Positions 56,001 through 59,000 of a DNA stretch of 64,000 nt are shown here, piece after piece. A program made the position numbers and the translations under genes. Below the pieces are notes generated by a model, which searched no databases, was not told the DNA's origin, and was given only the letters and a program-made list of their open reading frames with translations. The stretch is taken from NCBI RefSeq assembly GCF_053078305.1, contig NZ_CP166879.1, one strand, 5' to 3'. Numbering within the stretch: position 1 is the first letter of the stretch; each line of letters starts with the position of its first letter.

Positions 56001-59000
56001 TTCTCTGTGCCAAACGACGTCGCAAGTCGGTTCTCGATTAGCAACAGCGGAAAAGGCATGACGGATAGCAACGGGACTGCAATCGCCTCCCTGACCGGCA
56101 CGTTAGCGGGCACGCATATGATCACGGCTCGTCTGGCTAACAGCAATGTCAGCGATACACAGCCAATGACGTTTGTGGCGGATAAAGACAGAGCGGTTGT
56201 CGTTCTGCAAACATCGAAAGCGGAAATCATTGGGAATGGCGTGGATGAGACGACTCTGACAGCAACAGTTAAAGATCCTTTTGATAACGTGGTTAAAAAT
56301 CTTTCAGTAGTCTTCCGCACCTCCCCCGCAGACACGCAACTGAGTCTGAACGCGCGTAATACTAATGAGAACGGTATTGCTGAAGTTACCCTTAAGGGCA
56401 CGGTTTTGGGTGTTCATACAGCCGAAGCCATACTGCTTAACGGCAACAGAGATACGAAGATAGTCAATATTGCGCCCGATGCCAGCAACGCGCAGGTCAC
56501 CCTGAACATCCCTGCACAACAGGTGGTGACGAATAACAGCGACAGCGTGCAGCTGACGGCGACGGTGAAAGATCCGTCAAATCATCCGGTGGCGGGGATA
56601 ACGGTAAACTTCACCATGCCACAGGACGTGGCGGCAAACTTTACCCTTGAAAATAACGGTATTGCCATCACTCAGGCCAATGGCGAAGCGCATGTCACGC
56701 TCAAAGGTAAAAAAGCGGGCACAAATACGGTAACCGCAACGCTGGGTAACAATAATGCCAGCGATGCGCAGCCAGTCACCTTCGTGGCGGATAAGGACAG
56801 CGCAGTTGTCGTTCTGCAAACATCGAAAGCGGAAATCATTGGGAATGGCGTGGATGAGACGACTCTGACAGCAACAGTGAAAGATCCTTTTGATAACGCA
56901 GTAAAAGATCTACAGGTCACCTTCAGTACCAACCCGGCAGATACTCAACTTAGTCAGAGCACAAGCAATACTAACGACAGTGGTGTTGCTGAAGTTACCC
57001 TTAAGGGCACGGTTTTGGGTGTTCATACAGTCGAAGCCACACTGCTTAACGGCAATGGCTATACGACGACAGTCAATATTGCGCCCGATGCCAGCAACGC
57101 GCAGGTCACCCTGAACATCCCTGCTCAACAGGTGGTGACGAATAACAGCGACAATGTGCAGCTGACGGCGACGGTGAAAGACCCATCGAATCATCCGGTA
57201 GCGGGGATAACGGTAAACTTCACCATGCCACAGGACGTTGCGGCAAACTTTACCCTTGAAAATAACGGTATTGCCATCACTCAGGCCAATGGGGAAGCGC
57301 ATGTCACGCTGAAAGGTAAAAAAGCGGGCACGCATACGGTTACCGCAACGCTGGGTAATAACAATACCAGTGATTCGCAGCCGGTAACATTTGTGGCGGA
57401 CAAAACCTCGGCTCAGGTTGTCCTGCAGATGTCAAAAGATGAGATCACAGGTAATGGCGTCGATAACGCAACGCTAACTGCAACGGTTAAAGATCAGTTC
57501 GACAATGAGGTGAATAATCTTCCGGTAACATTCAGCTCAGCCTCTTCAGGACTCACCCTGACCCCGGGAGTAAGTAATACCAATGAGTCTGGCATCGCGC
57601 AGGCCACTCTCGCAGGCGTTGCCTTTGGTGAGCAGACGGTCACTGCATCACTGGCTAATAATGGTGCCAGCGACAACAAAACTGTGCATTTTATTGGCGA
57701 CACAGCGGCGGCAAAAATTATCGAGTTGACGCCTGTCCCAGACAGCATAATCGCCGGTACCCCGCAGAACAGCTCCGGCAGCGTCATCACCGCCACAGTC
57801 GTTGATAATAATGGCTTTCCGGTGAAAGGTGTGACTGTGAACTTCACCAGCAGAACAAACTCTGCCGAAATGACGAATGGCGGCCAAGCCGTAACGAACG
57901 AACAGGGTAAGGCTACCATCACTTATACCAATACCCGCTCCTCGATAGAATCAGGAGCGAGACCGGATACCGTTGAGGCCAGTCTGGAAAATGGTAGCTC
58001 CACGCTTAGCACATCAATTAATGTCAATGCTGATGCGTCTACGGCACATCTCACTTTGCTACATGCACTTTTTGATACAGTCTCCGCAGGCGAGACAACC
58101 AGTCTGTATATTGAGGTGAAGGATAATTACGGCAACGGTGTCCCCCAGCATCAGGTAACCCTCAGCGTTTCACCAAGTGAAGGCGTGACCCTCAGTAATA
58201 ACGGTATATATACTACCAACTACTACGGCTATTTTTACGCAAGCTTTACCGCTACAAAAGCCGGGGTTTATCAAGTGACGGCAACCCTCGATAATGGCGA
58301 TTCGATGCAACAAACAGTGACCTATGTGCCGAACGTCGCGAATGCTGAAATCACGCTGGCAGCCTCGAAGGATCCGGTAATTGCCGACAATAACGATCTC
58401 ACGACACTAACAGCAACAGTCGCTGATACAGAGGGCAATGCGATAGCCAACACTGAAGTAACATTTACTCTGCCGGAAGATGTGAAGGCGAACTTCACGC
58501 TGAGCGATGGCGGTAAAGCGATTACTGATGCTGAAGGCAAAGCGAAAGTCACGCTGAAAGGTACAAAAGCAGGCGCTCATACTGTTACAGCATTGATGGC
58601 TGGCGGTAAGAGCGGACAACTGGTGGTGAACTTTACTGCGGATACGCTCACTGCGCAGGTTAATCTTAACGTTACCGAGGACAATTTCATCGCCAATAAC
58701 ATTGGGATGACCAAACTTCAGGCAACAGTGACTGATGGAAACGGCAACCCGTTAGCCAATGAGGCGGTAACATTCACACTACCGGCAGATGTGAGCGCAA
58801 GCTTCACTCTCGGACAAGGCGGTTCCGCCATTACTGATATCAACGGCAAGGCTGAAGTTACACTGAGCGGTACAAAATCCGGCACCTATCCCGTGACAGT
58901 TAGCGTGAACAGTTACGGTGTCAGTGATACGAAGCCGGTGACTTTGATTGCCGATGCTGGTACCGCTAAAATGGCTGGTTTTACCGCATCATCAAGCTCA

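Follow-up and report, generated by a model that had tools for sequence, protein, structure and literature searches.

What has been duplicated in the stalk of the Escherichia coli adhesin YeeJ, how old is the duplication, and how does it relate to the shorter YeeJ of strain K-12? These questions are raised by a stretch of 64,000 nucleotides of contig NZ_CP166879.1 (NCBI RefSeq assembly GCF_053078305.1), referred to here as the window, in which the yeeJ gene contains two similar segments in direct succession. A preliminary description had placed these segments, of about 600 bp each, at 56160-56760 and 56760-57360. The analysis presented here supports, with high confidence, an old in-frame duplication of a module of two Big_1 domains (203 amino acids, aa) in the YeeJ stalk, carried by the published long, UMN026-type allele of the gene with 19 immunoglobulin-like (Ig-like) domains.

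The repeat within yeeJ

The duplicated segment has the following parts.

56133..56741, plus strand: repeat unit A, 609 bp (203 codons), Ig-like domains D6 (aa 1055-1144) and D7 (aa 1154-1247) with linkers
56742..57350, plus strand: repeat unit B, 609 bp, Ig-like domains D8 (aa 1258-1347) and D9 (aa 1357-1450)
56133-56195: lead, 79% identity between the units
56196..56269, plus strand (partner 56805-56878): longest perfect match between the units, 74 bp, a likely substrate for homologous unequal crossing-over
56290..56376, plus strand (partner 56899-56985 in D8): divergent patch in the C-terminal half of D6, 66-68% identity
56377-56741: remainder of the unit, 94% identity between the units
57351..57644, plus strand: homology tail and D10, an older paralogue of D6 and D8

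The units lie head to tail and in frame, with 89.3% identity in DNA and 176 of 203 residues (86.7%) identical in protein. A tandem duplication inside yeeJ is thus real and lies where it had been placed to within about 30 bp, although its period is 609 bp and not about 600. The description of its copies as almost identical in DNA is overstated: identity is 89% and forms a mosaic along the unit. The block holding the 74-bp perfect run is 99% identical between the units, and seven perfect runs of 26 to 74 bp are shared overall. The divergent patch has a synonymous divergence (dS) of about 1.65 and a non-synonymous divergence (dN) of 0.26, and is diagnostic of copy A versus copy B in all alleles examined. 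Positive selection was considered for this patch and rejected, the dN/dS ratio being about 0.15 with saturated dS, which points instead to old divergence.

A repeat search returned a direct repeat with three members spaced at exactly 609 bp, starting at 56105, 56714 (82% over 300 nucleotides) and 57323 (64%). The last of these is an older third copy of the first domain, at 57323-57622, with 64% identity. In a base-by-base scan the best segment at an offset of 609 was 56133-56791 against 56742-57400, a stretch of 659 bp with 74 mismatches (88.8% identity); the high-identity match ends at 57400. The differing codons in this segment comprise 31 synonymous and 29 non-synonymous changes. Tandem Repeats Finder reported nothing at the repeat site because the period of 609 bp exceeds the longest period searched, 500 bp. 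Three open reading frames (ORFs) on the minus strand within the repeat (55871-56401, 56910-57335 and 57494-57922) have no Pfam match and are out of register with the repeat, and were dismissed as chance ORFs.

The gene that holds the repeat, and the barrel that anchors its product, are as follows.

53070..61070, plus strand: yeeJ coding sequence, inverse autotransporter (type Ve) adhesin, 2666 aa plus stop, from the start used in RefSeq orthologues
53499..54326, plus strand: IAT_beta outer-membrane beta-barrel (translocator), aa 169-444 in ORF numbering, Pfam PF11924

The protein had been given as 2691 aa and as longer than that of K-12. The greater length holds, at 2666 aa against 2358 aa, a difference of 308 aa. 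The figure of 2691 aa belongs to the mechanical ORF (52995..61070, plus strand), which begins at an upstream TTG at 52995, whereas the start codon in RefSeq orthologues corresponds to window position 53070. A public E. coli protein (P0002), found on 16 public contigs, is identical to the 2666-aa YeeJ of the window. Another (P0066), also of 2666 aa and 99% identical, has Klebsiella pneumoniae as its source label, and probably comes from a mislabelled or contaminated assembly.

The N-terminal IAT_beta domain, a 12-stranded barrel, is matched over profile positions 2-279 of 279 (E = 1.9e-112, 375.8 bits against a cut-off of 22.3). The passenger matches Pfam Big_1 in 17 stretches (837 bits) and Invasin_D3 in 18 (470 bits), while Invasin_D4 is matched weakly at aa 30-103 of the last 222 aa (30.4 bits against a cut-off of 27) and a Pfam search of the final 120 aa or so gave no match. 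With both the barrel and the tandem Big_1/Invasin_D3 passenger present, the protein is a member of the inverse autotransporters. For LysM, the periplasmic peptidoglycan-binding domain of the YeeJ/intimin subgroup, the N-terminal 177 aa score 15.4 bits in Pfam, below the cut-off of 20.9; peptidoglycan binding by K-12 YeeJ has been demonstrated experimentally (PMC5595812). No NCBIfam model was passed by the window protein, all matches being under their cut-offs. Identity to K-12 YeeJ is 98.0% over the first 1000 aa, and the gene order tRNA-Ser, mtfA, tRNA-Asn, yeeJ, a family-9 glycosyltransferase (GT9) gene and shiA is shared with BW25113, O157:H7, NDM6 and EC12. By position, identity to K-12 and domains, the gene is yeeJ, the orthologue of the E. 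coli b1978 locus.

The 19 Ig-like domains of the stalk were delimited with a purpose-built hidden Markov model grown from a single domain. D6 and D8 are 81% identical in protein and 85% in DNA, and D7 and D9 are 96% and 95% identical. D10, the older relative, has 57-61% protein and about 63% DNA identity to D6 and D8, and every other pair of domains falls at 13-51% in protein and 46-63% in DNA. Domains that are neighbours within the repeat have only 33-36% amino acid identity; they stay dissimilar because the repeat unit consists of two unlike domains. The expectation that the repeat encodes duplicated Ig-like modules is borne out, with two Big_1 domains in each unit.

Two readings that would do away with the duplication have no appreciable probability. 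One is that only the conserved Ig framework is being seen, with no specific duplication. It is true that short motifs such as LTATVKD are common to all of the stalk domains and that Big_1 is matched throughout the passenger, but the background identities just given are far from those of D6/D8 and D7/D9, and the register is held across two whole domains and their linkers. The domain identity matrix thus excludes chance or generic Ig-framework similarity. The other is that the assembler wrote a single unit twice. Repeats of about 600 bp can mis-assemble from short reads, a risk noted in published work on autotransporter repeats (PMC5595812, PMC6714894). An artefactual copy would however be identical, and these copies differ at 74 positions, including a patch with 34% divergence; about 1,250 complete E. 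coli genomes have both copies, told apart by identical diagnostic differences at orthologous sites, and the exact protein of the window recurs on its 16 public contigs. An artefact, named in the preliminary description as what would overturn the duplication, is excluded for this class of allele, as both diverged copies are common to many independent complete genomes.

Allele lengths in complete genomes

Of 5,426 complete E. coli genomes covered, 5,194 contain yeeJ sequence of some length, and in 2,703 of them 80% or more of the gene is present. A 1,951-bp interval spanning the repeat is matched in 2,917 complete genomes, about 1,250 of which cover at least 80% of it. Class frequencies were taken from systematic, evenly spaced samples of 60 records and not from a full census. 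Two units collinear with the window (span 1951) were seen in 23 of 60 sampled records, the K-12 type, shorter by 906 bp (span 1045), in 32 (approximately 53%), and a one-unit form shorter by 609 bp (span 1342) in one. A 151-bp query across the D7-to-D8 junction cross-matched K-12-type genes (87% identity, 79-81% coverage) and gave no clean count of two-unit alleles. About 38% of the sampled complete genomes, for example UM146 and U14A, have only a yeeJ remnant of 2.4-2.5 kb (31% of the query). This is annotated as separate beta-barrel and Ig-like fragments, in agreement with the truncated yeeJ published beside asnT in many strains.

The one-unit alleles are rare, with a single record in each systematic sample of 60 and at least 12 genomes overall, and are of two kinds. 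At least 11 complete genomes carry the EC12-type allele, and their sources are humans, cattle, a gull, a horse, water and soil. Alignment of this allele with the two-unit allele of strain 64.1 shows 3 substitutions, a 1-bp insertion or deletion and a clean 609-bp gap, the crossover lying in D7/D9. The allele of A10 is intact, encoding 2465 aa; compared with that of 2021CK-01784 it has 8 substitutions and a clean gap of 609 bp, and its crossover maps to the 74-bp perfect run. Judged by these alignments, the one-unit alleles are the products of two independent and recent 609-bp contractions, the event having occurred at least twice. The yeeJ genes of EC12 and of strain 64.1 are both annotated as frameshifted, and the EC12-type allele is identical in its 11 or more genomes of unrelated source; these lineages, as far as their sequences indicate, may carry yeeJ as a pseudogene.

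At the other end of the series, the best-scoring database protein, of 2880 aa, contains three units. The corresponding DNA interval is longer by exactly 609 bp, and units 2 and 3 are both of B type and 95.6% identical to each other. At least 20 complete genomes, including those of PCN033, SCU-102, O166:H15 strains and NCTC9038, match the three-unit interval collinearly and in one piece. The three-unit coding sequence of PCN033 is intact, with 8613 bp encoding 2870 aa. The suggestion that this repeat is a hotspot for length variation is upheld among complete E. coli genomes by alleles of one, two and three units and by the K-12 deletion of 906 bp across the same repeat.

The K-12 form differs from the window by the following segment.

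56279..57184, plus strand: 906 bp missing from K-12-type yeeJ, comprising the C-terminal half of D6, D7, D8 and the N-terminal half of D9

Against K-12 strain BW25113 the difference is exactly 906 bp, or three domain equivalents within the 609-bp repeat. On this exact difference the window allele is assigned to the published long (UMN026-type) variant, with which it shares the gene, the locus, the barrel and Big-domain passenger and the additional 906 bp. The shorter K-12 gene is not the result of losing one unit, as the presence of a tandem repeat might lead one to assume, but lacks 1.5 units. The end points of the deletion lie in the conserved L-T-A-T-V-K-D-P motif, at 56268-56278 and 57174-57184, and the V-K-D-P codons at both junction sites read GTGAAAGATCC in some long alleles (D6 of NDM6 and D9 of O157). 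The K-12 gene has a hybrid domain at this position, D6N::D9C, which is of D6 type (97-100% identity) left of the junction and of D9 type right of it. We infer that K-12 yeeJ arose by a 906-bp deletion from a two-unit ancestor, which is far more parsimonious than a change from short to long. Formation of the long gene from the short one by internal duplication is implausible because the C-terminal half of D6 and the N-terminal half of D9 have no close source in the K-12 gene.

Age of the duplication and alternative histories

The copies were compared across four two-unit alleles, those of the window, NDM6, 23S01245-7 and O157:H7. In the lead and patch blocks, A copies group with A and B with B (95-100%), while A against B is only 66-79% identical. 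The duplication is thus older than the divergence of these four alleles. In the D7/D9 block the identity of A to B (92-95%) is close to that between alleles of A (93-98%), and dS between the copies is uneven along the unit, at 0.04, 1.65, 0.15 and 0.75. The simplest reading of these patterns would be an old duplication that has been partly homogenised by gene conversion.

Other histories can be set beside it. It is improbable that the short K-12-type gene is ancestral and that an inserted or acquired fragment of 906 bp gave rise to the long form, in line with the wording of the 2017 paper ("additional 906 bp"). The K-12 type is the majority class in the sampled records, and scans for motifs in outgroups gave no orthologue with which to polarise the change: degenerate-codon DNA patterns for D6/D8 (GNGVDETTLTATVKD) and D7/D9 (NFTMPQDVAANF) had zero matches in a collection of species-representative genomes. 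The structure of the K-12 hybrid domain nevertheless argues against it, with its N-terminal half of D6 type and its C-terminal half of D9 type. The halves of D6 and D9 that are missing have no source in the K-12 gene, where the nearest paralogue, D10, is about 60% identical, and a single deletion between GTGAAAGATCC sites 906 bp apart accounts exactly for the K-12 junction. More improbable still is that the two-unit allele arose when two diverged one-unit alleles, one with an A-type patch like that of EC12 and one with a B-type patch like that of A10, underwent unequal crossing-over, leaving the present one-unit alleles as relics. These two do differ in patch type, and dS in the patch (1.65) is far above that of the rest of the unit (0.04-0.15). 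The one-unit alleles are, however, not only rare but nearly identical over about 7.4 kb to present-day two-unit alleles, with 3 and 8 substitutions and a clean gap of 609 bp. Such near-identity outside the gap indicates recent loss rather than ancient retention.

Some points weigh against an old duplication that still generates length variation. The copy number ranges only from 1 to 3 and the units are only 89% identical, so changes in number must be infrequent, and the classes with one and three units resemble a small number of clonal lineages more than the outcome of frequent switching. The mosaic divergence could reflect an imported patch, or the crossing-over of diverged one-unit alleles considered above, instead of gene conversion. 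With zero matches in the outgroup scans, the proposed direction of the K-12 change follows from the logic of the hybrid domain. Furthermore, short and long YeeJ promote biofilms equally (PMC5595812), and because these published assays show no difference between them an adaptive meaning for stalk length is unsupported.

The locus, related adhesins and stalk length

The neighbours of yeeJ are those of the K-12 locus.

51601-51690: tRNA-Ser (cga), syntenic with the K-12 yeeJ locus
51745-52581: mtfA ORF, syntenic with the K-12 yeeJ locus
52682..52757, plus strand: tRNA-Asn (asnT), upstream of yeeJ, a synteny marker
61652-62704, minus strand: GT9 ORF, downstream of yeeJ, syntenic with the K-12 locus

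The GT9 gene is an intact ORF of 350 aa in the window, O157, A10 and PCN033; the annotations of BW25113, NDM6 and EC12 give it as a pseudogene containing an internal stop. On the other side, positions 1-51600 are mostly a lambdoid prophage integrated beside tRNA-Ser(cga), and A10 and O157 F8092B have phage or integrase remnants at the same tRNA. The prophage includes the following features.

2767-6291: tail tip protein J
28970-30937: NanS-p-like sialate esterase
32982-33231: tRNA-Met/Arg/Arg cluster, like those that precede stx in Shiga-toxin phages
47823-50261: exonuclease VIII-like gene
50523-51548: integrase

A Shiga toxin gene (stx) beside the tRNA cluster was looked for and rejected, as the adjacent ORF of 331 aa (31961-32956) is methyltransferase-like and not a toxin.

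The long allele itself is not new. Two length variants of yeeJ, represented by MG1655 and UMN026, have been described as differing by a 906-bp fragment of three Big domains "made up of a repeated section" (Martinez-Gil et al. 2017, Sci Rep 7:11326, PMC5595812), so that the long allele and its repeated 906-bp segment are already known, as is the exact protein of the window from public databases. That work recognises only two lengths and regards the 906 bp as an addition to the gene, whereas here a 609-bp, two-domain unit is resolved. To this are added the hybrid domain of K-12 and the alleles of one unit (2465 aa) and three units (2870 aa).

Within the type Ve family, the Yersinia ruckeri proteins YrIlm and YrInv likewise have a Big_1/Invasin_D3 stalk expanded by tandem duplication, in which the Ig-domain repeats are almost identical (Wrobel et al. 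2018, cited in PMC6714894; structure 5ldy). The only solved-structure sequence matched by the YeeJ units is a YrIlm Ig-domain fragment (5ldy_A, E = 3.8e-4). YrIlm has many near-identical single-domain repeats, in contrast to the two moderately diverged copies of a two-domain unit in YeeJ, and the NCBIfam model for the YrIlm N-terminus scores 432.7 bits on the window protein, below its cut-off of 750. Intimin, invasin and FdeC have the same overall build as YeeJ, with an IAT_beta barrel and a rod of Big_1 domains, and with a periplasmic LysM-like region and a lectin-like capping domain at the C-terminal tip, both of which are putative in YeeJ. They differ in having 3-9 Ig domains rather than 19 and other tip domains, and YeeJ falls below every NCBIfam equivalog cut-off. 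It is not an intimin.

The tip varies separately from the repeat. In the window it occupies 60680-61067, the last 130 or so codons, and is 46% identical in protein to the tips of K-12 and O157, 67-68% to those of A10 and three-unit alleles and 100% to that of NDM6. Megablast alignments to most genomes end at query base 7679. At least three YeeJ tip types are present, and they cut across the stalk-length classes; tip type may outweigh the repeat for binding specificity. Divergence from K-12 yeeJ also shifts across the repeat, from 97.6% DNA identity on its left (52995-56278) to 87.3% on its right (57162-61005), with protein identities of 98% and 85%; the distal stalk is 84.8% identical. By these figures the window yeeJ is an allelic mosaic in which divergence changes across the repeat region.

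How might the units be gained and lost? The perfect runs that they share, of 26 to 74 bp, would allow them to misalign through unequal homologous exchange or replication slippage. Each such event would add or remove exactly two Ig domains and keep the reading frame, because the unit is a multiple of three bases. The outcome would be a change in stalk length and not an on/off switch. The clean 609-bp differences between near-identical alleles, with crossovers in shared tracts, are observed directly. The K-12 form would be due to a separate event, a deletion between the short V-K-D-P matches (11 bp or less) in D6 and D9 with the loss of three domains. A change in stalk length would in turn alter the distance of the C-terminal tip domain from the outer membrane. 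The homology of Big_1 domains to the rods of invasin and YrIlm suggests that the stalk is a rigid rod that scales with repeat number. The five-domain rod of invasin is about 18 nm long; scaled from this, each Ig domain would contribute approximately 3.5-4 nm and each unit would change the reach of the tip by approximately 7-8 nm.

Length variation of this kind recalls the Periscope Proteins, a class in which inverse autotransporters are listed among the Gram-negative members (PMC9704523), although YeeJ is not named in that review (0 occurrences). Like them, YeeJ is a single-chain surface protein with a stalk of tandem Ig-like domains, a distal tip and in-frame gain and loss of units between strains, and with its alleles of one, two and three units it shows the variation in repeat number between related strains by which the class is recognised. 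Unlike a typical member it has only 1-3 copies of one two-domain unit, with 4 of 19 domains involved and the other 15 or so diverged (13-51% amino acid identity). For neighbouring modules its units are highly identical, yet they fall well short of the near-identity that typical members show. Because the units are only 89% identical, length variation in YeeJ is, on sequence grounds, slow and at the level of lineages rather than populations.

It is conceivable, although rather unlikely, that YeeJ is a low-copy, slow periscope in which recombination yields a series of four lengths of stalk (16, 17, 19 and 21 Ig domains), combined in modular fashion with the three or more tip domains, and in which selection matches reach to O-antigen or capsule thickness or to host niche. 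A unit of two unlike domains would then be favoured as avoiding the misfolding of adjacent near-identical Ig domains. If this were true, the published biofilm assays would have missed the effect of length.

In descriptive terms, there are at least four natural lengths of the YeeJ stalk and not two, gains and losses occur in clean steps of two domains, and the laboratory K-12 protein carries a hybrid Ig domain that would stem from a deletion. This should be useful for the design of YeeJ surface-display scaffolds, for the typing of adhesin alleles from short-read assemblies, and for testing what the reach of an adhesin may contribute to colonisation.

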